Part shown: in pieces, positions 3,334 through 23,922 of the stretch | Position numbering within the stretch: position 1 is the first letter of the stretch | Layout of the letters: each line of letters begins with the position of its first letter | Program-made: the position numbers and the translations under genes | Assembly (NCBI GenBank): GCA_003058495.1 | Contig: QBVC01000008.1 | Span: forward strand, 19,164-83,163 | DNA length: 64,000 bases | Reading direction: 5' to 3' | Source of the DNA: a gamma proteobacterium symbiont of Ctena orbiculata | Lineage (GTDB): Bacteria; Pseudomonadota; Gammaproteobacteria; Chromatiales; Chromatiaceae | The notes under the pieces: model-generated | Databases searched by the model: none | What the model saw: the letters and a program-made list of their open reading frames with translations, nothing else | What the model was told of the DNA's origin: nothing

Positions 3334-4839
3334 ATGAAGATCACCCTCACAGTCAACCAGGTTGCCGGGGCTCCCCCCGCGCAACCCATGACAGTGACTT
3401 TCGATGACCAGGGCGGCAGCATCGGCCGCAGGGGAGAGAACGACTGGGTGTTGCCCGATCCGGAGCGCTTCATATCGGGACGTCATGCGCTGATCGATTT
3501 CAGCGACGGCGCCTTCCATATAACCGATCTCAGCTCCAATGGGATCTTCATAAACCGCTCCGCCCAACCCATGGGCAAGAACAACCGCGTCGCCCTGCAT
3601 CATGGCGACAGCCTTACCATCGGCGACTACGAGATCGGCGTAGCGATCGAGGAACCGGTCAACCAGATCCTGCAAGGCAACAGCTTCGAGGGATTGGACG
3701 ATCCCTTTGCGAAGATGGTCGATGAGCAGGCGGGGCAGAAATTGGAGGGGGGATTCCCAGCCCCCTTGGAGCCTCAACCCGAGCCGTTGATCGATGAGGG
3801 CTACTCCCTGGAAGAGGCGGAGACACCCAGTCTTGAAACGGATGAATCATCCCCTGAAACAGGGGAGGCGGAAGGCCTGCCCTCACAGGCGGATCATGTC
3901 CCCGATCTGAATGCCTATTTCAACCAGCCGAGTCCGATCCCTGAGGATTGGGACCAGGAAGAAAACAGCCTGGTCCAGGGTGGCGGGCCAGAGGCAGCGC
4001 CACCCGCTGAACCTTTGCCGCCCCTCGATGATGTGCCTTTACCCGGCGCCCCCGAGCAGCCTGCGCTGATCCCTGATACGGAGCCGTCTGAAGAGCCGGC
4101 GCCCTTCGCCATCCAGGAACCGACGCCCACGGCGGAGCAACAACAGCCGGGCATGGCAACGGCTGCAGCGACCCAAATGCCCGCGGAGCCCCCTGCGGCT
4201 GCTGTCGCCTACTCGGGAGACGAGGCGGTCCTGCGCCGCACCTTGGCTGAAAGCATGGGGATAGACGAAAGCCACTTTGCCGATCTTCCGCTCACGACCC
4301 TGTTGCAGAACCTCGGCCAGGTGATGCGGGTCAGCGTCAGCGGAACCATGTCGATGCTGCGTGCAAGAGCGCAGATGAAGGGCGAGTTCCGCATGTCCCA
4401 GACCATGATCCAACCGGTCGAGAACAATCCGCTGAAGTTTTCCATCAATATCGAGGAGGCACTGCGCCATATCATCAATCCAAATCCCAGCAGCGGTTAC
4501 CTCTCTCCCCTCGCCGCGTTTGAGGAGGCCCACGAGGATATCGAGGCGCATATGCTGGCGGTCATGGTAGGCATGCAGGCCGCTTTGCATGCCGTTTTGC
4601 AACGCTTCAAACCAGAGATACTGGAACAACGTCTCGGCCAGCAGGCGCTGTTGGAAAAACTGCCGCTCTACCGCCAGGCCAAGACCTGGGAGCTGTTCAC
4701 GGAACTCTATAGCGAGATCGCCGACGAGGCCGAGGACGATTTTCATCAACTCTTCGGGCGTACCTTTTCCCAGGCCTATGAGGAACAGATCCGCCGCCTG
4801 GAGTCGCTGAAAGACCCCGCCCCCGGTTCACCCAACTGA
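3334..4839 (+). CDS. tagH: T6SS-associated FHA domain protein TagH/Fha
   Basis: N-terminal FHA domain (IGRRGENDWVLPDPERFISGRHA, DLSSNG), Pro/Glu-rich linker, C-terminal ENNPLKFS motif. Confidence 0.93.
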   Translation: MKITLTVNQVAGAPPAQPMTVTFDDQGGSIGRRGENDWVLPDPERFISGRHALIDFSDGAFHITDLSSNGIFINRSAQPMGKNNRVALHHGDSLTIGDYEIGVAIEEPVNQILQGNSFEGLDDPFAKMVDEQAGQKLEGGFPAPLEPQPEPLIDEGYSLEEAETPSLETDESSPETGEAEGLPSQADHVPDLNAYFNQPSPIPEDWDQEENSLVQGGGPEAAPPAEPLPPLDDVPLPGAPEQPALIPDTEPSEEPAPFAIQEPTPTAEQQQPGMATAAATQMPAEPPAAAVAYSGDEAVLRRTLAESMGIDESHFADLPLTTLLQNLGQVMRVSVSGTMSMLRARAQMKGEFRMSQTMIQPVENNPLKFSINIEEALRHIINPNPSSGYLSPLAAFEEAHEDIEAHMLAVMVGMQAALHAVLQRFKPEILEQRLGQQALLEKLPLYRQAKTWELFTELYSEIADEAEDDFHQLFGRTFSQAYEEQIRRLESLKDPAPGSPN

Positions 4840-11000: not shown

Positions 11001-11593
11001 TCGGACGCTTTTTCGGTCCCGGCGGCATGATGGACAACTTCTTCAACAGCTATCTGCAGGATTTTGTCGATACCTCCCGCCGCAGCTGGCGCTGGAACGC
11101 GGCGGGCAACCGCGCCCTCGGCATACCCACCGGCACCCTGAGGCAGTTCCAGCGGGCGGCGGTTATCCGCGACGCCTTCTTCAGCGGCTCCGCCCAGGAT
11201 CCGAAGATCAACTTCGAGGTCAAACCGCTGAGCATGGATACCACCATCACCCAGATCACCCTGCTGCTCAATCAGCAGCGCGTCAGGTATAACCACGGCC
11301 CCGCCCGCTGGAACCGTATGATCTGGCCCGACGACTCCGGGATCAGCGACACCAAGATCCTGTTGGCGCCTCCCGCCGGAAACAAGCCTTCCGGACTGAC
11401 CGAGGATGGTCCATGGGGCTGGTTCCGAATCATCGACCAGGCAAAGACCGAGGCCACCGACTCACCCGAGACCATTAAGGTCGAGTTCAACGTGGGCGGA
11501 CGCAAATCCCGTTTTATGTTGCGTGCCAGTGGCGCCCTCAATCCCTTCAAGCTCAAAGAATTGGCAGATTTCCGGTGTCCGAACAGACTCTGA
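8012..11593 (+). CDS. tssM: T6SS membrane subunit TssM/IcmF
   Basis: 1193 aa; N-terminal TMs, LPWYMFIGPPGSGKTT Walker A, GGTRNCDWWFT, DTAGRY, and GPWGWFR near the C-terminus. Confidence 0.97.
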   Translation: MRAIMGIIKNRWFVAILGLIAISIIIWLVGPLIAIAGIEPLGSVLGRLIAILLVVLIWLGMELRRFLTARKKNQQMLESVVGQKDQPQIHARESDEEVAILSQRLDEAIRILKESKIGGKQDRQFLYQLPWYMFIGPPGSGKTTALLNSGLHFPLADKLGNDAVQGIGGTRNCDWWFTDDAVLLDTAGRYTTQDSYEEVDRAAWMGFLDLLKRHRKRRPINGALVAISVEDILQLTELERLSHAKAIRMRVKELIDHFGIRFPIYILFTKCDLLAGFNEFFENMGREERSQVWGMTFPLTDKADEDGGISRFQDEFRALEKRIDVRLMDRLEQERDTKRRILIYSFPQQFSALREAAESFLYEAFSANRFQETPMVRGIYFTSGTQEGTPIDRLLGSMAQEFGLNRQIAPAFSGSGRSFFINRLFKDLIFPEAHLAGVNTRVEKRRAWLQRMAYVGAISLAVLAGVAWFTSYSRNQSYIDQVAIQANAAEEKVNAVAPDDLTLANVVPALDSVRRIPGGYADQEAEIPWLMGLGLYQGDKLGSEAVSAYRTSLKNLFLPRIILSLENQLTRPGNNPDYLYEALKVYLMFDDSEHFDAETVKTWMLLQWQLNLPGAENAQARQALAGHLDALLEMLPMTPTLPLDQDLIAHVRGNLLRVPLADRVYNRMKRTTASGSVPPIRLTQAIGADADQVFSRRSGEPLDKEIPALFTYEGYHKLFLKDHLEIANKLLEEKWILGPELEKIVGETDLVKLSARVKELYYEEYIRTWEQQLADIRVKPFANMRQAVDILNIISGPSSPLRRYLKLVQEQTSLSRLPGGAKKAAELVERNTSGITRRLASILQVAPDASEAASEDSLLTTPVDQHFASLNRMIQAQEGEQAPLERTMEMLNELYAHMSSIASAGNQSNQAFNVARDPSAGGSVISRLKLEAKRQPGHLAAMLNTLADGSSNLTISGVRAHLNSVWTTQVLPFCQRSLTGRYPLDRDSSREVTIGDFGRFFGPGGMMDNFFNSYLQDFVDTSRRSWRWNAAGNRALGIPTGTLRQFQRAAVIRDAFFSGSAQDPKINFEVKPLSMDTTITQITLLLNQQRVRYNHGPARWNRMIWPDDSGISDTKILLAPPAGNKPSGLTEDGPWGWFRIIDQAKTEATDSPETIKVEFNVGGRKSRFMLRASGALNPFKLKELADFRCPNRL

Positions 11594-12375
11594 ACAGCAC
11601 ATTGAACGAGGATGTCCCCGGGTTCTACGGCAAGATACCCTCCCTCGGGGATTTCGTAACGAGACGCCTGCCGCGCGGGTTTATCGCGCCCTGGGAGACC
11701 TGGATGCAGGAGGCGATAGCCAACAGCCGCGAACAGCTTGGTGATTTCTGGCTGGACAACTATCTCACCAGCCCCCTGTGGCGATTTGCCCTCACCCCCG
11801 GGATCTGCGGAGAACACGGCTGGGCGGGCGTGCTGATGCCGAGCGTCGACCGGGTCGGACGCTACTATCCCTTTACCCTGGCGGCGAGGCTCGATCCGAA
11901 ATTCAATCTCTTCCTCTTCATGGAGGAGTCCGAGCCCTGGTTTGCCAGGATGGAGGAGCTCGCGCTCTCCTGCCTTGAAGACGGCTTCCAGATGGAGTCG
12001 TTCGAGCAGCAGCTGCGCGCTGTCGGTCTGCCCAGTGCCGAACGCGAACCCCACCCGCCGCAACCGGAGGCCGCGACCACGGCACTCAACAACGCCTGGC
12101 ACGCCAAACTGGAGGAGCAGTCATCCCTGCGCAGCATCTATCCGCTGTTCCTTCCCCATCTGATGAAGAAGCTGCTCTTCGCCTACAGCCTCTGGTGGAC
12201 CCAGGGATCCGAGCGCATCTCGCCCTCTCTGCTGCTGTGCCAGGGTCTGCCCCAGATCAAGGGCGCCAGCGCCTTGATCGACGGCGCCTGGAGCCAGCAC
12301 GGCTGGGAGGAGATCGAAACCGGGACCTACGCACTGGGGGGGTTGTCCAATATCGAAGCCTCGCAGTCTCAATGA
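11575..12375 (+). CDS. tagF: T6SS-associated protein TagF
   Basis: GFYGKIPSLGDFV and LMPSVDRVGRYYPFT motifs. Start uncertain (GTG 11575 or TTG 11602). Confidence 0.92.
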   Translation: MSEQTLNSTLNEDVPGFYGKIPSLGDFVTRRLPRGFIAPWETWMQEAIANSREQLGDFWLDNYLTSPLWRFALTPGICGEHGWAGVLMPSVDRVGRYYPFTLAARLDPKFNLFLFMEESEPWFARMEELALSCLEDGFQMESFEQQLRAVGLPSAEREPHPPQPEAATTALNNAWHAKLEEQSSLRSIYPLFLPHLMKKLLFAYSLWWTQGSERISPSLLLCQGLPQIKGASALIDGAWSQHGWEEIETGTYALGGLSNIEASQSQ

Positions 12376-13127
12376 GCCTCAACAGCTTCTACTGGGTCTC
12401 GGCGCACATGAGCGACAAGGGAAAGGTGCGCTCAATCAACGAAGACGCCTGTCTCGATCGGGCCGACCTGGGGATCTGGGCGGTGGCTGACGGCATGGGC
12501 GGGCATGCCGCCGGCGACATGGCCTCGGAAATGATCGTCAATGAGCTCAAATCGATCACTCCGGGGGATTCGCTGGGGGCGCTGGCCAGCGATGTGGAGC
12601 AGCGGCTGCAGCATGTCAACCAGCAGCTGCTGCTTGAGTCGCAGCGACGCGGTGGCGAGATCATCGGGTCCACCGTGGTCACCCTGCTCACCTACCAGGG
12701 CTACTGTATCTACCAATGGGCGGGAGACAGCCGGATCTACCTCTACCGCCGCGGCAGACTCAAACAACTCAGCCGCGACCACAGCCAGTTGGAAGAGCTG
12801 ATCGAACAGGGTCTGGTCACCCTGGACCAGGCGGAACAATCCCCGATCGCCAACTACATCACCCGCGCCGTGGGCGCCAGTGAGGAGTTGGAGCTGGATG
12901 CGGAGATCTTCGAGCCTTGCGACAGCGACCTGTTCCTGCTCTGCAGCGACGGCCTGAACAAGGAGGTCAGCGACGGGGAGATTGCCGAGATCCTGGGCGG
13001 CTACAGCTTTCAGCAAGCGGCGCAACAGCTGATCCAGCTGGCGATGGAGCGCGGCGCACGGGACAACGTAACCCTGGTACTGGTGCAGGCGAGTTCGACC
13101 CAGGCAAACGGGCCTGAACAGGAATGA
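12372..13127 (+). CDS. pppA: PP2C-family Ser/Thr phosphatase (PppA/TagG-like)
   Basis: GKVRSINEDA, VADGMGGH, AGDSR, LLCSDGL and GARDNVT PP2C motifs; ATG 12372 overlaps the tagF stop (ATGA). Confidence 0.9.
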   Translation: MSLNSFYWVSAHMSDKGKVRSINEDACLDRADLGIWAVADGMGGHAAGDMASEMIVNELKSITPGDSLGALASDVEQRLQHVNQQLLLESQRRGGEIIGSTVVTLLTYQGYCIYQWAGDSRIYLYRRGRLKQLSRDHSQLEELIEQGLVTLDQAEQSPIANYITRAVGASEELELDAEIFEPCDSDLFLLCSDGLNKEVSDGEIAEILGGYSFQQAAQQLIQLAMERGARDNVTLVLVQASSTQANGPEQE

Positions 13128-13167: not shown

Positions 13168-14568
13168 ATGCTGGAATCTAACATGTTCACCATGAGACAT
13201 AACGTTGTGAAACCGGGCCGCGAGAACATAGAAGATTTCACCAAACTCCTCCTCATCACCCTGTTGGCAATAAGCATCTCCGCCTGTGTTGCCCTGGGAC
13301 CGCAGCAGGAACCGGAACCGGTCGATGCGGAGGAACCAGAGGAGGAGGTAGTGACCATTCCTCCGCCGCCTGACTCACTGACCCCTTCACAGCGGGTACG
13401 CAAGGCGCTGCAGCAGTTGGAGCAGGGCGACTACGGGAACGCCCGGTTGCAACTCACCTGGGCATTACAGGAGAAGCCCACATTGCAGATCGCCGCCAAT
13501 CTGCTGCAACAGATGGATGTCGATCCCATCGACCATCTCGGCATGAAGAGTTTCTTCTACGATGTGGAGCCGGGTGACTCGCTCTCCATAATCGCCAAAA
13601 AATTCCTCAACGATCCGCTAAAGTTTGTCGTTCTGGCCCGCTACAACAAACTGGAGAATCCCAGCAAACTGGCCCCGGGTCAGCGTATCCGCGTGCCAGG
13701 TGTGATGCCGGAGAGAAAAAGAGCAAAACCCAAGCCAAAGCCACAACGATCAGAACCTGTTGCCCTGCCGCAAGCGTCCGTCGAAGCAACACCACCCCCT
13801 GCCACCACTGCCGAGCAGACAGCCTTGACGGCCGAGCCCGTGATGGAAGAGAGCGAGCCAGAACCGACCCAATCACCCGCCATGGAGGCAATCCCCATGG
13901 CAGCTACGGAGGTGACCGAGGAGCCGCCGCAACAGCAAGCGGAACAGCCTGTCGAAGAGGCGCCGGTAGCGATGACCGTCGAGGAGGCGCTCAGCTCTGC
14001 GCGAGGCCTGCATGGAGAAGGAAACCTCAGCGCGGCGATCTATCTGCTGGAAAACGAGAGCAGCCAGCATCCCGATTCAAAGGAGCTGCAGAAACTGCTT
14101 GCCGATTATTACAATGAGCATGCAGATCAACTCATCAACCGGGGCGAGCTGAACGATGCGCGGACAACCTTGGAAAAACTGATCATCCTTGACTCATCCG
14201 ATGATCAAGCGATCAATAAACTGATCCTGGTAGAGGACAGTATCGAGGCAGGAAAATTAATGCTGGCCGCACAGGATCAGCAAAACGCAGGCAACCTGGA
14301 ACAGGCCTACCAGACCTATGGTCAAGTCCTCACCTACGACCCGGAGAACCAAATCGCGAAGGATTCGCGACTGGTTGTCCGCGATCAGCTGACTGACAGC
14401 TATCATCGCCGCGCCATGCAGCTTTTCAGAAAGCAGGAGCTGGATGATGCGATTGGATTCTGGAACAAGATCCTGGAGTTGAATCCGAACCACTCCCTGG
14501 CCCCGGGTTACAAGGCACGGGCGTTGGAGATGAAACAGCAGCTGCAGAAGATCGAACCCGGCGGATGA
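13168..14568 (+). CDS. LysM and TPR domain lipoprotein
   Basis: Hydrophobic signal ending ISAC; LysM (YDVEPGDSLSIIAKKFL..NKLENPSKLAPGQRIRVP); Pro/Glu-rich linker; C-terminal TPR-like helices (AIGFWNKILELNPNH). Start may be 13183 or 13192. Confidence 0.8.
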   Translation: MLESNMFTMRHNVVKPGRENIEDFTKLLLITLLAISISACVALGPQQEPEPVDAEEPEEEVVTIPPPPDSLTPSQRVRKALQQLEQGDYGNARLQLTWALQEKPTLQIAANLLQQMDVDPIDHLGMKSFFYDVEPGDSLSIIAKKFLNDPLKFVVLARYNKLENPSKLAPGQRIRVPGVMPERKRAKPKPKPQRSEPVALPQASVEATPPPATTAEQTALTAEPVMEESEPEPTQSPAMEAIPMAATEVTEEPPQQQAEQPVEEAPVAMTVEEALSSARGLHGEGNLSAAIYLLENESSQHPDSKELQKLLADYYNEHADQLINRGELNDARTTLEKLIILDSSDDQAINKLILVEDSIEAGKLMLAAQDQQNAGNLEQAYQTYGQVLTYDPENQIAKDSRLVVRDQLTDSYHRRAMQLFRKQELDDAIGFWNKILELNPNHSLAPGYKARALEMKQQLQKIEPGG

Positions 14569-15009
14569 TATCGCCTTCTCTGTAATTACACGCCAAGCCA
14601 GTCACACATCGGTCAACCCTGGCTGGAAAACCGGTTACTACAACGTAAGCCTGTTCGATATCAACGACAATCAAAGACTCGTGGCAAGCAGTCGTTATCT
14701 CATTGACAGTGTAAGTGAGACTGAGAGTCAGGCATCGCAGGTAGACCGGGATGTCATTCACAACCTCATTTCCAATGGGCTTGCCATATCCAAGCCATAC
14801 TGAAATACCACTTTAATTCATAATTCATGCTGGCAATAATTCCACATGTTTTCGTCAAAGGTTGATATTTGGTAGCGCGATATCAGCGTCTTTCTTGGCT
14901 ATACGGTGATCACAATGCAGTTACGATTTTGAGCGTTATAGTTGCCTCTCCCCCCCAAAGAAGTTATATAACCTGTTGGTCCATATGCAACGATATGATG
15001 GTGGGTTAT

Positions 15010-15393
15010 ATGCTCAAATCACTGTTCAAGCAATTCCTGATATACCTTCTCTCCCTAAACATGGCAATCATCGGCTTTCCCGCCATTTCGCTAGCGGCTC
15101 CAATAGATACCATGACCGTCATCCAGCTGGATGACAGGCAAAAGAGTATCGACCAAATCCGTTCAACCATGGCCCGTGACGAGGTTCGCAGTTCCTTGCT
15201 GGAAATGGGCGTCGATCCTCAGGCAGTTGAACTACGCCTGGATGCGCTCACTGACCATGAGCTGTATGTACTCAATCAACAAATAGATGAACTGCCTGCC
15301 GGCGGCAGCGTCCTGGGTGTACTCGGCGCACTACTGATCGTGCTAATCGTATTGGAACTGCTGGGCGTCACTAATGTATTCACCAAGCTTTAA
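15010..15393 (+). CDS. PA2779-family protein
   Basis: Signal-like N-terminus, LLEMGVDPQAVELRLDALTDHEL, LPAGG plus C-terminal TM; directly upstream of a PA2778-like peptidase. ATG 15010 preferred over the ORF-track start. Confidence 0.8.
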   Translation: MLKSLFKQFLIYLLSLNMAIIGFPAISLAAPIDTMTVIQLDDRQKSIDQIRSTMARDEVRSSLLEMGVDPQAVELRLDALTDHELYVLNQQIDELPAGGSVLGVLGALLIVLIVLELLGVTNVFTKL

Positions 15394-15446
15394 GTCTGGA
15401 TGATATCAGCTGGGTTAAGGACCGACCCACTGATATTCAATCCGCA

Positions 15447-16463
15447 TTGAACGCGATCCCGGGCAAACCGAACGAGGTGGCCAAGCCATACCTCGCTTCG
15501 TTACTGTTATTGCTGCTTAGTGGTTGCGCAAGTCATCCACCCCTACTCTCTCCTTTGCTCCCCTCGGCGTCAACGCATGCCATGCTGGAGTTGGAGGCCA
15601 CCCCGTTCCATGCGCAAGAGAAGTATCAGTGCGGTCCGGCGGCTCTCGCCACCCTGCTTGAAGATTCAGGGGTTCCGGTGACTGCCGAATCCCTGGTGCC
15701 GCTGGTCTACCTGCCGGAGAAAAAGGGCAGCCTTCAAATGGAGATGGTGGCGGTCAGCCGTCGTTACCAGCGGATCCCCTACGTTATCAGACCCGATCTG
15801 AACTCACTGCTCGCGGAGTTGCAGGCAGGCCGACCCGTGCTGGTGCTGCAGAACCTCGGATTCACCCAATTCCCTGTCTGGCACTACGCGGTGGTGATCG
15901 GCTACTCGGCAGAGAGGGATGAGATGATCCTGCGTTCCGGGGTCACCCGACGCGAGGTCCTCGACGCGCATCGCTTTCTCGCTACCTGGAAACAGTCGGG
16001 CCACTGGGCCATGGTGCTGCTGAGACCCGGTGATTTACCCGCTGTGCCAGACCAGCTGCCCTACTTGAAGGCAGTGGCCGCCATGGAACGATCGGCCCCC
16101 GCCGAGCACCTCATCGCGGCTTACCGTGCAGCCCTGGATCATTGGCCGGAGAGTGCAATCGCAATGTTCGGTTTGGCGGTCGCCCAGCACGCCAAGGGGG
16201 ACCTGGCGGCGGCTGAACTGAACTATAGGAGGCTCCTGGAGGCAGCGCCTGACTTTATCGCAGCCCACAACAACCTGGCCGAGGTATTGGCCGACAGGGG
16301 TTGCTATAGCGAGGCCAGGGCAGTGATTCAACAGGCATTGCAGAAAGAGAGCGGCGCCTTGCAGCAGGAGCTGAGGCAAACTGAACACGAAATCGTGAGA
16401 AGAATAAACAATCATCCGTCACAACCCTCTCCCTGCCGACGGCCGAGGATTCCGCATGAATAG
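15447..16463 (+). CDS. PA2778-family C39-like cysteine peptidase lipoprotein with TPR
   Basis: Lipobox LSGC, catalytic QCGPAALA (Cys) and WHYAVVIGY (His), C-terminal TPR (AHNNLAEVL). Alternative start GTG 15477. Confidence 0.85.
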   Translation: MNAIPGKPNEVAKPYLASLLLLLLSGCASHPPLLSPLLPSASTHAMLELEATPFHAQEKYQCGPAALATLLEDSGVPVTAESLVPLVYLPEKKGSLQMEMVAVSRRYQRIPYVIRPDLNSLLAELQAGRPVLVLQNLGFTQFPVWHYAVVIGYSAERDEMILRSGVTRREVLDAHRFLATWKQSGHWAMVLLRPGDLPAVPDQLPYLKAVAAMERSAPAEHLIAAYRAALDHWPESAIAMFGLAVAQHAKGDLAAAELNYRRLLEAAPDFIAAHNNLAEVLADRGCYSEARAVIQQALQKESGALQQELRQTEHEIVRRINNHPSQPSPCRRPRIPHE

Positions 16464-17096
16464 ATGATCTCTTCAAATACCCGCGAGAAGAGTGACCCAT
16501 GAGTCGTGGATCTCCCGCTATCCAGTTGCCGAATTTGACGGAGAAAAAACCCAGTTAAATCCTATGTTTCTGACATAAAATCGAACATGTCAACTTGATG
16601 GATTGGTTGTCTCGTCTACTATTGATCTGTAATATGGCGGGCAAGAATTAGCAGTAGCATGCCAAACGGATCGATTGGCTAAGTTTTGTGGTTTTTTTAC
16701 CACTAAGATGATGGATCATCATCGACATCGGGGCTGTCAAGCATAGGTTAAAACCTCACTGCAACCGATTTATACCTTGGGTAGTACCTGCAGATATCCC
16801 TGTCTCATGCAGCGGAGAGATACGGTACTGCTTGAATACAATGGAACAATAGGGAACTACAGCATTGCCGGGAAAGACAATGGCACAATGGATACCACTC
16901 TGTGACAGCGCTGCTGCCCAGCTGCCGTCAACCAATCACACCCTATCAGCGATTTGCATCCCTGGGCGCATTTGTCCATCAAATCGCCGACAGGATCCCA
17001 AAAAACTCAGGATATATTGCTTTCGATCAATGATCTAGTTAATTAAACATGGAAGATTACGCCGCATGGACATAATTGAACAAAGCATAATAATTC

Positions 17097-17840
17097 ATGG
17101 AAGCCGTGATTGAGTCTCTTACCCTGACCCATCTTCTCTTTGCTGCAGTTGTCATCAGCCTGGCCTACCTGGTGCGGGGTATCGCCGGCTTCGGCTCCGG
17201 CCTTATTGCGATCCCACTGCTGGCCCTGATATTGCCGCTGACCACGGCTGTACCGCTGATCGTCTTTCTCGATTACATGGCCTCGGCCAGTCATGGCATC
17301 AAACACCGGGAGGCGATTAAATGGAATGAGATCCTCTCCCTGTTGCCCTTCGCGGTGGTCGGTGTCTTAACCGCCCTCTTTATTTTCAAATCAGTGGACA
17401 TGGAGGCCCTGAAAATAGGCTTGGGCGCCTTTATTTTGGTATTCGCCGTCTATTCGCTCTTCTCCTTTTCCGGCAAGGAACTGATCTCTTCGGTTTGGTC
17501 GGTACCCGCAGGCAGCATGGGCGGATTGATCGGCACCCTGTATGGGACCGGCGGCCCCTTTTATGTCCTCTACCTGAAATTCCGCAAGATAGAGAAAACC
17601 CAGTTCAGGGCCACCTTCGCCACCATCTTTCTGCTCGATGGCGCAGGTCGCCTCGCGGGCTATCTGTTTACCGGCTTTTTCACCCTCGACCTGGTGTTGA
17701 TGATGGCGGTGGCCATTCCGTTGATGGTAATCGGGATGTTCATCGGCGGCCGCATCCATACCAACATGTCACAGCAAACCTTCCAGCGCGCTATCAGCAT
17801 GCTGCTGGTCTTCAGTGGCTTGGCGCTGTTGCTGAAGTAG
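17097..17840 (+). CDS. TauE/SafE family sulfite exporter-like membrane protein
   Basis: Multi-TM protein with GIAGFGSG and GTLYGTGGP repeats typical of TauE/SafE. Confidence 0.85.
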   Translation: MEAVIESLTLTHLLFAAVVISLAYLVRGIAGFGSGLIAIPLLALILPLTTAVPLIVFLDYMASASHGIKHREAIKWNEILSLLPFAVVGVLTALFIFKSVDMEALKIGLGAFILVFAVYSLFSFSGKELISSVWSVPAGSMGGLIGTLYGTGGPFYVLYLKFRKIEKTQFRATFATIFLLDGAGRLAGYLFTGFFTLDLVLMMAVAIPLMVIGMFIGGRIHTNMSQQTFQRAISMLLVFSGLALLLK

Positions 17841-17897
17841 CCTCGAAATAGGATTGCTGAATGGTTTTTGAACCGACTGGACTCGTCTCAACAGGCC

Positions 17898-18671
17898 CTA
17901 GTTAAACTCATTCACCAAGGCCCCGATACCTTCGATCACCACCTCCACGGTACAACCCCGTTCCATCGGCCCCGCTCCAATGGAAGTGCCGCAAGCGATG
18001 ATATCGCCAGGCCGCAGCGGCATGTCATGGGAAATACGACTAACGATCTGGCGCGGCTTGAAGAACATATCGGTCACGGGATAGTTTTGTAATTCTGCGC
18101 CGTCAACCAGGGTCCTGACCGACAATGTTTCCGCATCCAGACCCGTTGCAATAACCGGCCCGACGGCGCTAAAGGTGTCAAAGCTCTTTGCCCTGGTCCA
18201 ATGCACGAACAAGGGGTCCTCCCGCAGCAGGCCGCGGGCAGTGACATCATTGACACAGGTGTAGCCGAACACATAATCATCGACATCGTCCTCACTGATA
18301 TTATGGCACTGCTTGCCGATGACGATGCCGAGCTCACCCTCGTAGACCACTGGACCGTCATATCCCTCCGGTCGCCTGATTGTCCCACCCGGGGGGAGAA
18401 AGGATGTGCCTGCCTTCATGAAATAGAGAGGATGGTTGGGTCTAGACCAGCCCTCCTTCGCCGCCCTGGAATGAAAGTTGTTCCACAGGGCGATCATCGT
18501 TGTAGGTTCACAGGGGGTCAACAGCTTGACTGCCTCCAGGGGCAGTGTCTGTTCTGTCGCTACCGCCCCGTTGTACATGTCCCCCTGGTAGGTGGTTATT
18601 AGATTCTCGCTCAAGACGCCGAAGCCCCTCTCTCCCTGATAGTCATAACGAACCCACTGTTTCATTCCCAT
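17898..18671 (-). CDS. Fumarylacetoacetate hydrolase family protein
   Basis: YEGELGIVIGK, GYTCVNDVTAR, KSFDTFSAVGP and PGDIIACGT FAH motifs. Confidence 0.92.
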   Translation of the reverse strand: MGMKQWVRYDYQGERGFGVLSENLITTYQGDMYNGAVATEQTLPLEAVKLLTPCEPTTMIALWNNFHSRAAKEGWSRPNHPLYFMKAGTSFLPPGGTIRRPEGYDGPVVYEGELGIVIGKQCHNISEDDVDDYVFGYTCVNDVTARGLLREDPLFVHWTRAKSFDTFSAVGPVIATGLDAETLSVRTLVDGAELQNYPVTDMFFKPRQIVSRISHDMPLRPGDIIACGTSIGAGPMERGCTVEVVIEGIGALVNEFN

Positions 18672-19126: not shown

Positions 19127-20053
19127 CTACATGGATTGAAAGTTACGCAGCCTCAGGCGGCTCTTCTTGTCGTCCGGATCGAACTTGAGGGCATACTCCC
19201 AATACTTTATCGCATGCTCAGGCTCATTGCGGGAACTCCTCACCCCTTTGAGGTAGAGCGCCCTGCCATACGCCTTGCGCTGTTGCTGAATTTTATCAAG
19301 CCTGTCGGCATCGCTGGTGAAAACGCGCTCCGCCCGTTGCAGATAGTCCAGGGCATCCTTGTAGTTTTCCGCATCGAAAGCGGCGCCTGCCTGATCGAGA
19401 AGAATCTTCGAGAGAAGATCACGCACCTCCCTGTCCTTGGGGAATTTCTTTAAATGCGTCTCGATCTCCTTGAGATATTCCCCTAGGTTTGCCTGCCTCC
19501 CTTCCGCCTGCAGTATCTCCTGACGCGAGTAGATATAGGCCTCTTCGTGAAAACCCTTGGCCAGCTTTTTCTTTTTTGTTCTATTGTTGTAATTGCTGTT
19601 TGAACGCGCAACCTTCTTTTTCATTGCTGCCTTGGATGCCCGCTTGTCGAGTTCCCGCATGGCCTCTAGCGCCGATTTGTGCTTTGGATTGAGACTGAGG
19701 GCTTTTAGGTAGTAGCGCCGAGCCTTGGTTAACCGGCCCTGGCTGACGGCCTGCTTTCCCTGCCTCATCATTTTCTCGCTTTGCCGGTTTATCTTCGCTT
19801 CAACACGCTTGATCGCGGCGTTGATCTTGCTATCCCGTCGCGATACTGTCCTCGCCACCTTGAGATTGTACAGGGCGCCTTGCAGATCACCCTTTTTCTC
19901 CCGGGCTTCGGCGCTACGCAACCAGGTGGCCGGTCTGCCATAGTCGCCCGATATCACGCCCTTGGCCGACTGGGTGGATGAACAACCGCTGCCAAGCACC
20001 AGCAGCAATATGCCAAGTAGACTGAATAGCGACGCCGGTGGACGCATCATCAA
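19127..20053 (-). CDS. TPR-repeat lipoprotein
   Basis: Signal peptide ending LGSGC; TPR-like units (YLKALSLNPKH, YWEYALKFDPDD); Lys-rich linker; start overlaps the deacetylase stop. Confidence 0.75.
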   Translation of the reverse strand: MMMRPPASLFSLLGILLLVLGSGCSSTQSAKGVISGDYGRPATWLRSAEAREKKGDLQGALYNLKVARTVSRRDSKINAAIKRVEAKINRQSEKMMRQGKQAVSQGRLTKARRYYLKALSLNPKHKSALEAMRELDKRASKAAMKKKVARSNSNYNNRTKKKKLAKGFHEEAYIYSRQEILQAEGRQANLGEYLKEIETHLKKFPKDREVRDLLSKILLDQAGAAFDAENYKDALDYLQRAERVFTSDADRLDKIQQQRKAYGRALYLKGVRSSRNEPEHAIKYWEYALKFDPDDKKSRLRLRNFQSM

Positions 20054-21036
20054 CGCAATGCCTTGAAGGTCACCAGGCTCTTCTTGAATGCCTGCATGTC
20101 CCTGTCGCCAAAGATCATGGTGCGGTGAAGAAGATAGGGGTAGCTGAAGGCGGCATTGGATTGCCGCTGCACGGTCAATCCCAACAACAAGCCGTTCGCC
20201 TGCAGCTGTTCGATCACCAGATCATTGCTGTCACCGAACGGGTAGGCGTAATAGAGCGGTCTCTCCCCCAGGTACTTCACCAATCTCTCATTCGGTATCG
20301 AGATCTCCTGGCGCACCCTGCGTCGATATTGGCCGGGGCTCTCACCCGCCTGCCTGACAGTCAGGTTGCTGTGGGTCTTGGAGTGGGGCTGGATATTGAT
20401 CAAGCCGCTTTTTATCATGGCGTCGAGTTCTTGTGTCTTCAGGCCGCCGTTGTTTAGGTAGTCGCTGTAGACAAACACGGTAGCGGGATAACCATACTCC
20501 TTGAGAATGGGGAAGGCCTCTTTGTAGATAGAGCGGTGGCCATCATCGATGGTCAACACCACGGCACGTTTTGGCAGTTGTTTTTCCCCCTTGAGAAATC
20601 CGACCAGGTCGCTCAGCGGTATCACCCGATAGTCATTTTTATCCAGGTACTCCATCTGCTTTCTGAACATCGCCGGCGTCACTTCCATGCGGTCGCTGCG
20701 CCTGCCGAAACGGTGATAGCAGAGGATAGGTACAGTCTGGTAGCCTTTGTATTCGATCCCGGTCGGATTCTCCATCTTCAACGGAATGACAATCTCACGG
20801 CCTTCGGCCACCGGATTGGGATGATTGGCATCCTCGATCAACCAATACAGGCTCTCATCACGGAGGTAACGCCTGGCCAGCGAGCGCGCATCATCGCTAC
20901 CGACGCGCAGAACGATGAAATCCCTGTCTTTCGCGATAACCTGGCTGCCGGAGGAACGAAGCACGGGAGAGGAACAAGCGGTAAACAGCAATGCAAAAAT
21001 GATCAGTGGCGTGATTTTCGTCAACAGTGCTCGCAT
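20050..21036 (-). CDS. Polysaccharide deacetylase (CE4/NodB) lipoprotein with degenerate LysM-like N-domain
   Basis: Lipobox LFTAC; SLARRYLRDESLYWLIEDAN..GREIVIP (LysM-like); CE4 motifs TIDDGH, HSKTH, YAYPFG. ATG 21036 gives a canonical signal peptide. Confidence 0.85.
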   Translation of the reverse strand: MRALLTKITPLIIFALLFTACSSPVLRSSGSQVIAKDRDFIVLRVGSDDARSLARRYLRDESLYWLIEDANHPNPVAEGREIVIPLKMENPTGIEYKGYQTVPILCYHRFGRRSDRMEVTPAMFRKQMEYLDKNDYRVIPLSDLVGFLKGEKQLPKRAVVLTIDDGHRSIYKEAFPILKEYGYPATVFVYSDYLNNGGLKTQELDAMIKSGLINIQPHSKTHSNLTVRQAGESPGQYRRRVRQEISIPNERLVKYLGERPLYYAYPFGDSNDLVIEQLQANGLLLGLTVQRQSNAAFSYPYLLHRTMIFGDRDMQAFKKSLVTFKALR

Positions 21037-21120
21037 TGAGGTATACCTCGGCATTTGCGGTTGCAAACCTCCTGTATTGACAACTCCCAGGTTCCTTTCA
21101 TTGAAGATGCCAACAGACAA

Positions 21121-22908
21121 CTAGGTGTTGTTCTGCTTGGGCGGCATGATTCTTGTGGCATCATCGAACTCAGGGTCCGGCGCACTGAGTTCCTGTTCAT
21201 CCTGTGCCGGCGCCGGGGACGCTTGGATCTCCTGCTCATGCGCCATGTTGGTGGTATCGTCATCCCCATCGGTGATCTGCGTTACGGTCTGCTGCTGCAG
21301 CTGATGCTGGCACTCATCGCGCTGTTTCAGAAGCGTATCCGCCATTCTGTTGTATTCCGAAAAGAGCAATCCCAGTTCATCGTTTCGCTCCTTGTGGATC
21401 CGGTATCCCAGATTGCCATGATGCACATGGGCGATGGCCCGCCTGAGGATTCTTATCGGCACGGTAATACCGGTTGCCAGCAGATAAGCGACGATAACGA
21501 CCGTCAACACCACCGCAACCAGCAATCCCAGCATGGTGTAGAAAGTAAGGTCGGCTGCGGCGATAAGGGGTGTCTGGGAGAGGCCAAGCTGAACCATGCC
21601 GACCTGCTTTTTTTGGAAAACCAGAGGCGCCTGAAAATCGAACACCATCTCATCGTTCAGCTCTTTTTCTGATATCACCATGCCTTCGTCTTCGCGCAAC
21701 AGCTTCATCCCCTCCGCCGCCTCCTGTTTTTTGCCGACCTCTTCAATAGAGGTGCTGGCGCGCAGAACCTGCTTGTGATCGACAATCTTCAGGTAGCTGA
21801 TCTGTTGCCGCTGCTTGATCTCATGGACAAACGTCTCCAGCGCCACCCAGTCCTGGATCAATACCGCCTCGACGCTCTCCACCGCGATGAATTCCGCCAG
21901 CGAGCCCCCTGAATCCAGGGCCAGCTCGATCATCGCATCCACCTGTTTTCGATAAACCAGGTAGGACCCTAGAATCATCGCAATCGAGACCACGGCCGCC
22001 ATCACGGCGGTCCATTTGATACGCAGCGGCAGGATCTTCGATTCGCTGAGATGCTGCTGCTTCTCATCGATTTCGTGGACCACGCTGCGCAGTTCCGATG
22101 CAACCTCCTTGCCTGTCTGAAAGCGCTGCTCGGGTTTCTTGTTGAGCAGTTTTTCGACGATCTTTATCAGGCTGTGGGGGATCTCACCCTTCTTGTCCTT
22201 GATCGGCGCAGGATCCTCCTGCACGATCTTCATCAACAGCGAGGTGAGGGTCTCGGAGACAAATGGCTTCTCCCCGGTAATCAGCTGATAGAGAATGACA
22301 CCGAGGGAGAAGAGGTCGGAGCGTCCATCGACGGGAAAACCCTCGACCTGCTCGGGGGACATATACTGCGGGGTACCCAGGACCGCCCCCATCCGGGTGC
22401 GGTGCTCCTTGTTGGGTGAGTCCACATGGGCGATGCCGAAGTCGGTGATGCGGATGGTGTGGCCGTCGTCCGGGGAGATGATGTTGCCCGGTTTCACATC
22501 CCGGTGGACGATCCCGCGGTTGTGGGAGTAGTCCAGGGCCTCCGCCAATTGAATGCCGTAGACCACCGCCTCTCTGATGGAGATGGGGGCTTTGGATTCC
22601 ATCATCTCCTCGAGCGTCCTGCCCTCGAGGAATTCCATCGCTATGTAGGGCCCCTGCTCGACCTCCCCGACATCGAAAATGGTGACGATATTGGGATGGG
22701 TGAGCTTTCCCGCGGCCTTCGCCTCCTGCAGGAAGCGGTAGCGATACTCCGGATCCGTGGCAACCTCCCCGCGCAGGAGTTTGATCGCCAGGGTGCGGTT
22801 GATCTCGGGGTCGAAAGCCTTGTAGACAATTGACATCGCCCCCTCGCCGATCTCCTCGATGAGATTGAATCGGCCTATGGTATCCGGCATGGGCTGTTGG
22901 TTCTCCAA
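21121..22908 (-). CDS. Membrane Ser/Thr protein kinase (Hanks type) with periplasmic domain and HAMP; PpkA-like candidate
   Basis: GEGAMSIVY, AIK, HRDVKPGN, DFGIA, GTPQYMSPEQ all intact; TM-periplasmic-TM; HAMP (PIRILRRAI..RNDELGLLFSEYNRM); acidic tail. Confidence 0.93.
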   Translation of the reverse strand: MENQQPMPDTIGRFNLIEEIGEGAMSIVYKAFDPEINRTLAIKLLRGEVATDPEYRYRFLQEAKAAGKLTHPNIVTIFDVGEVEQGPYIAMEFLEGRTLEEMMESKAPISIREAVVYGIQLAEALDYSHNRGIVHRDVKPGNIISPDDGHTIRITDFGIAHVDSPNKEHRTRMGAVLGTPQYMSPEQVEGFPVDGRSDLFSLGVILYQLITGEKPFVSETLTSLLMKIVQEDPAPIKDKKGEIPHSLIKIVEKLLNKKPEQRFQTGKEVASELRSVVHEIDEKQQHLSESKILPLRIKWTAVMAAVVSIAMILGSYLVYRKQVDAMIELALDSGGSLAEFIAVESVEAVLIQDWVALETFVHEIKQRQQISYLKIVDHKQVLRASTSIEEVGKKQEAAEGMKLLREDEGMVISEKELNDEMVFDFQAPLVFQKKQVGMVQLGLSQTPLIAAADLTFYTMLGLLVAVVLTVVIVAYLLATGITVPIRILRRAIAHVHHGNLGYRIHKERNDELGLLFSEYNRMADTLLKQRDECQHQLQQQTVTQITDGDDDTTNMAHEQEIQASPAPAQDEQELSAPDPEFDDATRIMPPKQNNT

Positions 22909-23130
22909 ATCCCTTCTCCTACCTTACTACGCTGTCCGGGACATGCAGATCTGTCTCGAAACGTGCATATTTTCATGTCTCGTCTATGCTACCCCTGATA
23001 GAGTGTAGCAAATGGTGTTAATTTAAAGAAAATTGTATTGACGATCTGAGCGCCATTGATTAGCGTTCATGGAGTAGCGGAAAATCCACCCGACAGATGG
23101 ACTGGACAGACAAAAACAGCAGGCAAGCAG

Positions 23131-23922
23131 ATGAACGAAACCTTCGATATCCCAAGAATCCTTGAATTACGCAAACTGACAAGGTCAATATCGGAAAAGA
23201 TCGAAACCGACTTAAGTGGCTACTTAACCACCCTTGCCCCAATCTTCTCGCCCGCACCGATCCTGGGTGAGTATGTCCGGGGCGGCTCCAAGGCACCTGT
23301 GAAGGGAGCGGAAATCGCTTTTCGCGACCTGAAGAACCGGTATCAAACCATCGCCGGAAAAAAACCGTTTCTGCTGGAGAGAGAGCTCTCCACCCCGCTG
23401 GATGTCTTCGCGGCCACGCCGACCCTGACCGCCGTGGAGTACCCCTATAGCGCGGAACAGGGGAGCAAGTCCGCATCGCTCACGGTGACATCCCCATTGA
23501 AGTGGTATCTCTCCTATCCGGACCAGCACCCTAAAAAGCTGCTGGAAATGCTCGGGGGCAATCGCAACCAGCTGAAAGATGAATTATCCCATGCCTTGCT
23601 GCAGTGCCTGACACTGAGCCTGGTGCTGGAGAAGCGCCCAGGACTCGCAAGCATACTCCAAGGCCTGCGCTTCGAGCTGCAGACAAGCCATCATGAGGGG
23701 CTGGGCGAACTGCCGGTGGTTATGATCTCCTGCCCCCTGAAGACCCTGTTGCCGCCTGACGACATCATTATTCAAAATACCGAGATCTCCGGTATTCCAT
23801 CCTTCGAAGAGATCATCAATATCAACGATATCCGGGAACTCTCCGATCCCATGCAGCAAGGCATCCTTGCGATCACGAAAGAGGTCTCGCCAGCGATCTA
23901 CCGGGAGATCGCTGCTGCTTGA
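23131..23922 (+). CDS. Hypothetical protein divergent from the kinase
   Basis: 263-aa soluble-looking ORF (MNETFDIPRILELRKLTR...); no family recognised with certainty. Confidence 0.7.
   Translation: MNETFDIPRILELRKLTRSISEKIETDLSGYLTTLAPIFSPAPILGEYVRGGSKAPVKGAEIAFRDLKNRYQTIAGKKPFLLERELSTPLDVFAATPTLTAVEYPYSAEQGSKSASLTVTSPLKWYLSYPDQHPKKLLEMLGGNRNQLKDELSHALLQCLTLSLVLEKRPGLASILQGLRFELQTSHHEGLGELPVVMISCPLKTLLPPDDIIIQNTEISGIPSFEEIININDIRELSDPMQQGILAITKEVSPAIYREIAAA

Follow-up and report, generated by a model that had tools for sequence, protein, structure and literature searches.

A LysM-TPR lipoprotein family that partners sCache-HAMP kinases, a candidate periplasmic input to the type VI secretion phospho-switch

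When and where type VI secretion systems (T6SSs) fire outside Pseudomonas aeruginosa is largely an open question. Three unrelated periplasmic inputs to the PpkA/PppA/Fha phosphorylation switch have been described, namely TagQRST, RtkS and TssW. In P. aeruginosa, the outer-membrane lipoprotein TagQ forms a complex with TagR that contacts PpkA and has been proposed to dimerise it (PMC13713981). In Serratia marcescens, PpkA is activated from upstream by a periplasmic regulator, RtkS, which takes the place of TagQR (PMC13584744, PMC6082577). In Acidovorax citrulli, TssW, a protein of the outer membrane, binds PpkA and TssM through their periplasmic domains and determines where the kinase and the T6SS assemble (PMC12607579). 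Here, we describe a candidate fourth input. It is encoded in a 64,000-nucleotide stretch (the window; contig QBVC01000008.1, positions 19,164 to 83,163) from the genome of a gammaproteobacterial symbiont of Ctena orbiculata, where the last gene of a T6SS operon (window positions 13168-14568, plus strand) specifies a lipoprotein with a LysM domain and a tetratricopeptide repeat (TPR) domain. The family to which it belongs is widely distributed, has an obvious candidate ligand in the cell wall, and is the partner of a cassette built on an sCache-HAMP kinase, usually with a CE4 polysaccharide deacetylase, a second TPR lipoprotein and a PP2C phosphatase, rather than of the T6SS machine itself.

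TagQ/TagR of the P. aeruginosa H1-T6SS, which is encoded with TagST, PpkA, PppA and Fha1, resembles the LysM-TPR protein in being a lipoprotein-containing periplasmic module encoded with a switch of kinase, phosphatase and forkhead-associated (FHA) protein, and both occupy the same logical position upstream of threonine phosphorylation. Homology was judged by domains and not by comparison with the TagQ sequence, and on this measure the two differ: Pfam and NCBIfam recognise only LysM and TPR in the LysM-TPR protein, and no FGE-sulfatase domain (COG1262) of the TagR type. TagQ/TagR has the ABC partners TagST, whereas domain scans of the present T6SS cluster, from VgrG through the LysM-TPR gene, revealed neither these nor other TagQRST-like genes, nor a kinase. 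PpkA has a single transmembrane helix and a periplasmic C-terminus, whereas the kinase linked to the LysM-TPR family has an sCache and HAMP architecture not studied for T6SS. The probable cue differs as well, being the cell wall for the LysM-TPR protein and membrane damage for TagQ/TagR. If the LysM-TPR protein has a positioning or scaffold role, its closest analogue in function is TssW, whose accessory gene lies beside ppkA and fha. TssW has been described only in T6SS-bearing Betaproteobacteria and no LysM or TPR domain is reported for it (TPR is not mentioned, and peptidoglycan once, in PMC12607579). RtkS, for which neither a LysM nor a TPR domain is reported, has another taxonomic range. 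Both are set apart from the LysM-TPR family by description.

A different kind of relative is found among T6SS-cluster-encoded accessory proteins with a peptidoglycan-binding domain, such as TagL, TagN, TagP and TagW (PMC13584744). Their domain is of the OmpA/Pal/MotB type (PF00691), and they make up for its absence from TssL. In the present cluster, TssL carries PF00691 and the LysM-TPR protein, in which a Pfam scan finds no PF00691, uses LysM. Unlike them, the LysM-TPR family goes with the kinase and not with the membrane complex. NlpD, ActS and Kbp/YgaU are likewise envelope proteins with an N-terminal lipobox or LysM. In NlpD and ActS, however, LysM is followed by LytM (Peptidase_M23), and the same Pfam scan reveals no LytM/M23, BON or enzyme domain in the LysM-TPR protein, the NCBIfam scores of which are far under the cut-offs (17.9 against 375 for ActS and 28.6 against 134 for PRK11198). 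A 2026 review of T6SS accessory factors names TagQRST, RtkS, TslA/TagM1 and the OmpA-type anchors TagL/N/P/W and mentions neither LysM, tetratricopeptide nor deacetylase, and we found no description of the family in the literature on T6SS with LysM, PpkA, deacetylase or TPR. The LysM-TPR protein is therefore an undescribed accessory family within a known class of periplasmic inputs to the T6SS phospho-switch. The names under which its members are found in databases are generic ("LysM peptidoglycan-binding domain-containing protein", "tetratricopeptide repeat protein").

The partnership with the kinase emerges from the genomic distribution. A pattern scan of one genome per species gave 77 loci, in which the T6SS and cassette proteins of the window were placed by tblastn. 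A PppA, kinase or CE4 gene lies within 10 kb in 59 of 67 family loci, the apparent exceptions being mostly on short contigs. An earlier reading of the gene from the window alone (the first-pass annotation) had staked itself on homologues being found at T6SS or kinase loci, and it came through this survey. In 30 of 34 Sedimenticolaceae-like loci, the LysM-TPR gene follows pppA by 44-372 bp and ends a tssJKLM-tagF-pppA operon. The other four are two contig fragments, one divergent paralogue and one Sedimenticola locus on a longer contig, where the gene flanks the tssH-G-F-E end of the T6SS cluster. Within this group the gene is conserved inside T6SS clusters, as is expected of a Tag gene. A further 20 loci, from alpha- and gammaproteobacteria and from Deferrisomatales (by group, Kiloniellales, Rhodospirillales, Micropepsaceae, Cellvibrionales, Minwuiaceae, Deferrisomatales and unclassified members of both proteobacterial classes), have a different neighbourhood: a kinase, CE4 or PppA gene adjoins the LysM-TPR gene in 17 and a CE4 gene is present within 6 kb in 15, whereas a T6SS core gene is found within 10 kb in only five. 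The orthologue of the TPR lipoprotein is convergent and adjacent in most non-sphingomonad loci, including an apparent exception (L054) that was settled by a profile search. The same association is seen in an even set of 151 genomes from the family of the window, which are interrelated, so that the counts are descriptive and not a statistical test. The LysM-TPR protein is present in nine, a full-length kinase orthologue in eight and both in seven; the two genomes with the LysM-TPR protein alone have divergent partial matches, and in the single genome with only the kinase the match is 33% identical and lies at the end of a contig. TssK, in contrast, is present in 46 of these genomes, only eight of which have the LysM-TPR gene.

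The cassette is also found in sphingomonads. Here, the lipoprotein is a short form of about 220 amino acids when mature, in which a 113-residue LysM-containing module found throughout the family is joined through a short linker to one TPR repeat. Its gene is located 220-370 bp upstream of the orthologous sCache-HAMP kinase in 12 of 13 loci, and in the thirteenth a partial kinase sits at a contig end. The kinase gene is followed by that of an FHA protein with a T6SS_FHA_C domain (E 2.7e-33) and then by a PP2C gene, so that the LysM lipoprotein is encoded beside both a Pkinase-sCache-HAMP kinase and a PP2C phosphatase. All four genes are on the same strand in L063:9914-14176 (Sphingomonas sp. 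EC-HK361), L064-L071, L074, L076 and L084; in L063 a gene with an EAL domain lies directly upstream of the set. No match to TssC, TssK or TssM was obtained in four sphingomonad genomes, one of them recorded as a complete Sphingopyxis, or in a Minwuiaceae metagenome-assembled genome, and the gene and its kinase are thus not confined to T6SS-bearing genomes. TssC was found in six of the 15 non-Sedimenticolaceae carrier genomes tested; in the remainder its non-detection is weaker evidence because most are metagenome-assembled genomes. The first-pass annotation had proposed a periplasm-spanning peptidoglycan sensor, anchor or scaffold taking the place of TagQ/TagR. Of this, a sensor or scaffold in the kinase pathway fits the gene coupling, and spanning of the periplasm, peptidoglycan binding and replacement of TagQ/TagR are predictions, but a partnership with the T6SS as such does not hold, given the T6SS-free sphingomonads and the 38 of 46 TssK-positive genomes without the gene. 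The occurrence of a set of lipoprotein, kinase, TagH-like FHA protein and PP2C in sphingomonads without detectable T6SS suggests that the "T6SS" phospho-switch derives from, or doubles as, a general envelope-sensing pathway. The length of the TPR domain varies with the cassette, being about 160-196 residues where the CE4 and TPR-lipoprotein genes are present and 56 residues in sphingomonad forms, which lack both. This co-occurrence is a hint, drawn from few lineages, that the longer TPR domain docks the CE4 enzyme and the TPR lipoprotein, and that the module and last repeat serve the kinase.

In the window, the cassette is a minus-strand operon of three genes: a Hanks Ser/Thr kinase with periplasmic sCache and HAMP domains (21121-22908), the conserved genomic partner of the LysM-TPR gene; the CE4 polysaccharide deacetylase (20050-21120); and the second TPR lipoprotein (19127-20053), which in most loci outside Candidatus Thiodiazotropha is convergent to, and directly downstream of, the LysM-TPR gene. 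Here, four unrelated genes (14869-18671) are inserted between the LysM-TPR gene and the cassette. In the Chromatiaceae genome L037, the arrangement is contiguous, with pppA and the LysM-TPR gene on the plus strand, the TPR-lipoprotein, CE4 and kinase genes on the minus strand and then an open reading frame (ORF) of 288 amino acids, and the Thiodiazotropha layout can therefore be described as a unit of this type pulled apart by inserted genes. The inserts vary: some Thiodiazotropha species have TauE and FAH alone and others PA2779/PA2778 too, and L037 has none. From the gene order they look like stepwise insertions into an ancestral convergent cassette. The operon-terminal position is specific to a lineage and arose by rearrangement from the older convergent order seen in L037 and others, in which the LysM-TPR gene faces those of the TPR lipoprotein, CE4 enzyme and kinase. 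Separation by TauE, FAH, PA2779 and PA2778 was seen only in Thiodiazotropha, in comparison with L037, L022 and L023. The 288-residue ORF, which matches no Pfam family, is found beyond the kinase operon in the window (23056-23922, plus strand). Its orthologues follow the kinase in L037 and come directly after the LysM-TPR gene in Sedimenticola (L042:10308-11102; L097:9231-10025), and it may be a further member of the cassette confined to Sedimenticolaceae/Chromatiaceae. Paralogy between the TPR domain of the LysM-TPR protein and the neighbouring TPR lipoprotein was considered, as a second-round profile cross-matched the two, and was rejected; direct BLASTP within the genome gave only E 0.21, for which reason the similarity is treated as generic.

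The LysM-TPR gene encodes 466 amino acids from an ATG at 13168, with AGGA 7 nt upstream, or 461 amino acids from an alternative ATG at 13183. The database copy of the protein (P0001) has 461 residues and corresponds to the second start. The source genome, that of a Candidatus Thiodiazotropha (4.5 Mb), is 99% complete, and the nearest protein relatives belong without exception to this group of symbionts, which live in the gills of lucinid clams. The first-pass annotation described a lipobox, a short helical domain, an intact LysM, a Pro/Glu-rich spacer and a TPR C-terminus, and all of these parts were recovered. The signal peptide (13168-13287) ends in a lipobox, LLAISISAC, of the form expected of bacterial lipoproteins ([LVI][ASTVI][GAS]C). 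Its Cys40 (codon 13285-13287) is invariant in 20 of 20 aligned homologues, and a lipobox was found in 31 of 33 homologues taken from other loci. Sorting to the outer membrane is predicted because the +2 residue is Val, if the Escherichia coli rule applies. The remainder of the architecture was seen in an AlphaFold2 model built on 20 homologues, as the first-pass annotation had suggested for the protein alone. In the model, the signal-peptide helix is followed by a Glu/Pro-rich tether of 29 residues with a net charge of -9 and low confidence (pLDDT, predicted local distance difference test; residues 41-69, 13288-13374). Residues 70-180 are compact, at pLDDT 88-93, and comprise four short helices (residues 73-85, 89-102, 107-117 and 120-124; pLDDT >88) and the strand-helix-helix-strand of LysM (PF01476, residues 131-177, 33.8 bits against a cut-off of 20.9, E 3e-8). 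LysM binds polymers of N-acetylglucosamine (GlcNAc) such as peptidoglycan or chitin. The spacer is present but shorter than the ~120 residues first reported. It is a disordered linker of 87 residues (residues 183-269, 13714-13974; pLDDT 36-49; composition P17 A15 E15 T8 Q8) that starts with a basic stretch, KPKPKP (RKRAKPKPKPQR), and continues as an acidic, Pro/Ala/Glu-rich sequence. The C-terminus (13975-14565) is a TPR-like superhelical domain of about 195 residues, with nine helices at residues 270-462 and pLDDT 94-98. Pfam recognises TPR_2 (38.4 bits against a cut-off of 27) and TPR_1 (33.9 against 27.8) at residues 410-442, with weaker TPR matches starting at residue 282, and Foldseek matches the domain to the TPR domains of BamD, SPINDLY and OGT with probability 1.00. 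The C-terminal repeats are the best-conserved part of the protein, and the best-conserved motif of the family, YHRxAMxxFRxQxLxxAIxxWxKxLxxxPxH, is found near the C-terminus of this domain. A solved structure homologous to the whole protein was sought by profile and Foldseek searches, and only generic TPR (BamD, SPINDLY, OGT and designed CTPR proteins) and LysM matches were returned.

The helical hairpin and LysM form a module of 113 residues (13375-13713, with LysM itself at 13558-13698). The module length is 112-116 residues, and 113 in most, across all 19 lineages aligned; LARYN is invariant, and the canonical LysM motif GDSLS...LARYN is kept in the protein described here. Modelled alone, the module has pLDDT 96.8 and a beta-alpha-alpha-beta fold (E59-63, H70-78, H81-90 and E104-108). 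The LysM half can be overlaid on known LysM structures (1-2 Å rmsd, some 50 residues), with counterparts in Kbp, CEBiP, Ecp6 and contractile-injection baseplate proteins (Foldseek, PDB), whereas the module as a whole has no counterpart in the PDB, no Foldseek match reaching E 0.001. In a set of 1.84 billion representatives, a profile of the module matched 328 clusters at E<=1e-30 and 4,808 at E<=1e-10 (clusters at 50% identity; the 328 include some multi-LysM proteins, which score among the highest without bearing the module). Full-module matches are mostly near the N-terminus of proteins of 160-530 amino acids. A metagenomic homologue of 613 amino acids (P0096) has three modules in tandem ahead of the TPR domain, so that the unit behaves as a duplicable module. 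Variation is also seen at the linker position, where a few homologues (such as P0141 and P0155) have a chitobiase-type CHB_HEX_C_1/Fn3_assoc domain in place of the linker and another (L052:9468-10934) has a structured insert.

On balance, we lean towards a reading in which the LysM-TPR protein is an outer-membrane-anchored, peptidoglycan-bound co-receptor or scaffold of the sCache-HAMP kinase, an analogue rather than a homologue of TagQ/TagR, RtkS and TssW. The order of the parts suits an adaptor on a tether. The lipid anchor would be held in the outer membrane and, by way of the acidic tether, the hairpin-LysM module would keep the protein on the peptidoglycan layer. The C-terminal TPR domain, on its flexible Pro-rich linker, would offer a docking platform for periplasmic partners: the sCache domain of the kinase and, in long forms, the TPR lipoprotein and CE4 deacetylase also. 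Together, they would constitute the periplasmic input to the threonine-phosphorylation switch of kinase, PppA, TagH and TagF that licenses T6SS assembly, and the LysM-TPR protein would use the condition of the cell wall to set the place or the time of kinase activity. Several observations weigh against this proposal. In this genome, the kinase gene is located about 6.5 kb from the LysM-TPR gene and on the opposite strand, and a few family members are found away from any kinase with unrelated neighbours (L044 and L050). Contact with the kinase, like the outer-membrane location and the nature and direction of the signal, is something that we infer, in this case from gene neighbourhood. Binding of the module to the sacculus is predicted from its domain type, but the closest Foldseek matches include baseplate proteins, and some LysM folds serve protein contacts instead of glycan binding. 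The linker ranges from 25 to 155 residues across homologues, and no fixed spanning distance is therefore needed. A fusion of kinase and module was absent from the ten longest or oddest proteins among the 150 best representatives, each of which was either a lysozyme with several LysM domains or a LysM-TPR protein carrying a CHB_HEX_C_1 insert.

The same parts may be assembled in other ways. The LysM-TPR protein could be an adaptor for peptidoglycan remodelling that recruits or activates CE4 or other wall enzymes on the sacculus, so as to edit or mark the wall where the T6SS membrane complex is inserted, with the kinase reading the product and the LysM protein having no signalling role itself. 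N-acetyl groups are recognised by LysM and removed by CE4 enzymes, and the LysM lipoproteins NlpD and ActS activate wall hydrolases. Such an adaptor would also be in keeping with the CE4 gene in 15 of the 20 non-Sedimenticolaceae loci, with the co-occurrence of TPR domains of at least 160 residues with the CE4 enzyme and TPR lipoprotein, and with weak matches of the protein to ActS and DipM. We nevertheless consider it rather unlikely, given that the minimal conserved pair is LysM lipoprotein and kinase, that no CE4 gene is found between or near the genes in the sphingomonad cassettes, L049 and L073, and that the protein has no LytM or enzyme domain. A purely structural role, as an additional peptidoglycan anchor or spacer that stabilises TssJLM in the manner of TagL, TagN, TagP and TagW, is less probable still. 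It would suit a lipoprotein, as TssJ is, with a peptidoglycan-binding type of domain, whose gene closes the tssJKLM-tagF-pppA operon at each Thiodiazotropha locus. However, TssL already carries an OmpA domain (residues 336-434), which bears out the suspicion of the first-pass annotation that pure anchoring would be redundant, and most T6SSs of the family of the window do without the LysM-TPR gene. Together with the constancy of the kinase and its phosphatase as partners, these two points speak against a mere anchor and for a place where periplasmic signals enter the threonine-phosphorylation switch. Homologues in genomes without a TssC, TssK or TssM match point the same way, as does the preference outside Sedimenticolaceae for kinase-cassette genes over T6SS core genes as neighbours.

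The ligand might also be soluble. As a sensor of GlcNAc oligosaccharides, either muropeptides released by damage or chito-oligosaccharides of host or environment, the protein would pass its ligand to the sCache domain of the kinase instead of resting on the intact sacculus. Some CE4 enzymes deacetylate chito-oligosaccharides, oligomers of chitin are LysM ligands too, CEBiP and Ecp6 being among the matched structures, and the chitobiase-type domain that replaces the linker in some homologues would fit. We regard this as improbable: carriers of the family such as free-living sphingomonads, Kiloniellales and Deferrisomatales have no obvious chitin niche in common, a single LysM usually binds short oligomers only weakly, and the candidate ligands are not distinguished by the present data. 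It is very improbable that the protein is an unrelated envelope lipoprotein and a mere neighbour of the T6SS and kinase genes. Its generic annotations and the unrelated neighbours in L044 and L050 would allow this, but adjacency to the same kinase and phosphatase recurs in Gammaproteobacteria, Alphaproteobacteria and Deferrisomatales even where gene order and strand have changed, and the protein co-occurs with the kinase in the 151-genome sample.

Returning to the co-receptor or scaffold, one speculative extension, to which we attach only a small likelihood, is that hairpin-LysM lipoprotein and sCache-HAMP kinase make up a general proteobacterial pair for sensing wall integrity that became wired to T6SS firing in several lineages. 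In long forms, the LysM would read the N-acetylation of, or damage to, peptidoglycan edited by the CE4 enzyme, and damage by the muramidase or amidase of an attacker would activate the kinase locally and bring about a retaliatory T6SS response. If true, the pair would be a peptidoglycan-based counterpart of the "tit-for-tat" response to membrane damage in P. aeruginosa. In lucinid symbionts, the LysM-TPR protein may bear on the control of T6SS-mediated competition during colonisation of the gill.

The T6SS cluster around the gene is a full one. On the plus strand of the window, the order is tssG-tssH(clpV)-tagH(fha)-tssJ-tssK-tssL(OmpA)-tssM-tagF-pppA, followed by the LysM-TPR gene. TagH (3334-4839) is an FHA protein with a T6SS_FHA_C domain and the presumed substrate or reader of the kinase; tagF (11575-12375) and pppA (12372-13127), which encodes the PP2C phosphatase, are on the same strand, and the ATG of pppA overlaps the stop codon of tagF. 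The LysM-TPR gene was correctly taken to close the operon, as it starts 40 nt past the pppA stop and is followed by a spacer of at least 300 nt and then by unrelated genes, the PA2779/PA2778 pair, TauE and FAA hydrolase. The only terminator candidate after the gene is a weak 5-bp stem overlapping its stop codon, and terminator-like sites were no commoner than in shuffled sequence. Upstream of the window, a stretch of 19 kb contributes tssA, tssB, tssC, hcp, an ImpE/TagJ gene, tssE and tssF; with a divergent vgrG and genes for PAAR and DUF2169 proteins the cluster is complete. Just before tssA on the same contig, an ORF of 479 amino acids (L011:9893-11332, plus strand) has matches to T6SS_VipA at residues 26-102 and, at residues 208-464, to the N-terminal domain of VipB, and looks like a fused, divergent second sheath-like gene alongside the usual tssB and tssC. 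Next to vgrG (L011:6330-7358, minus strand) is the gene of a PAAR protein that bears a C39-like peptidase domain, and just past the T6SS operon (window 15447-16463, plus strand) is that of a C39-like peptidase of the PA2778 family with TPR repeats, so that the cluster is flanked by two C39-like peptidases.

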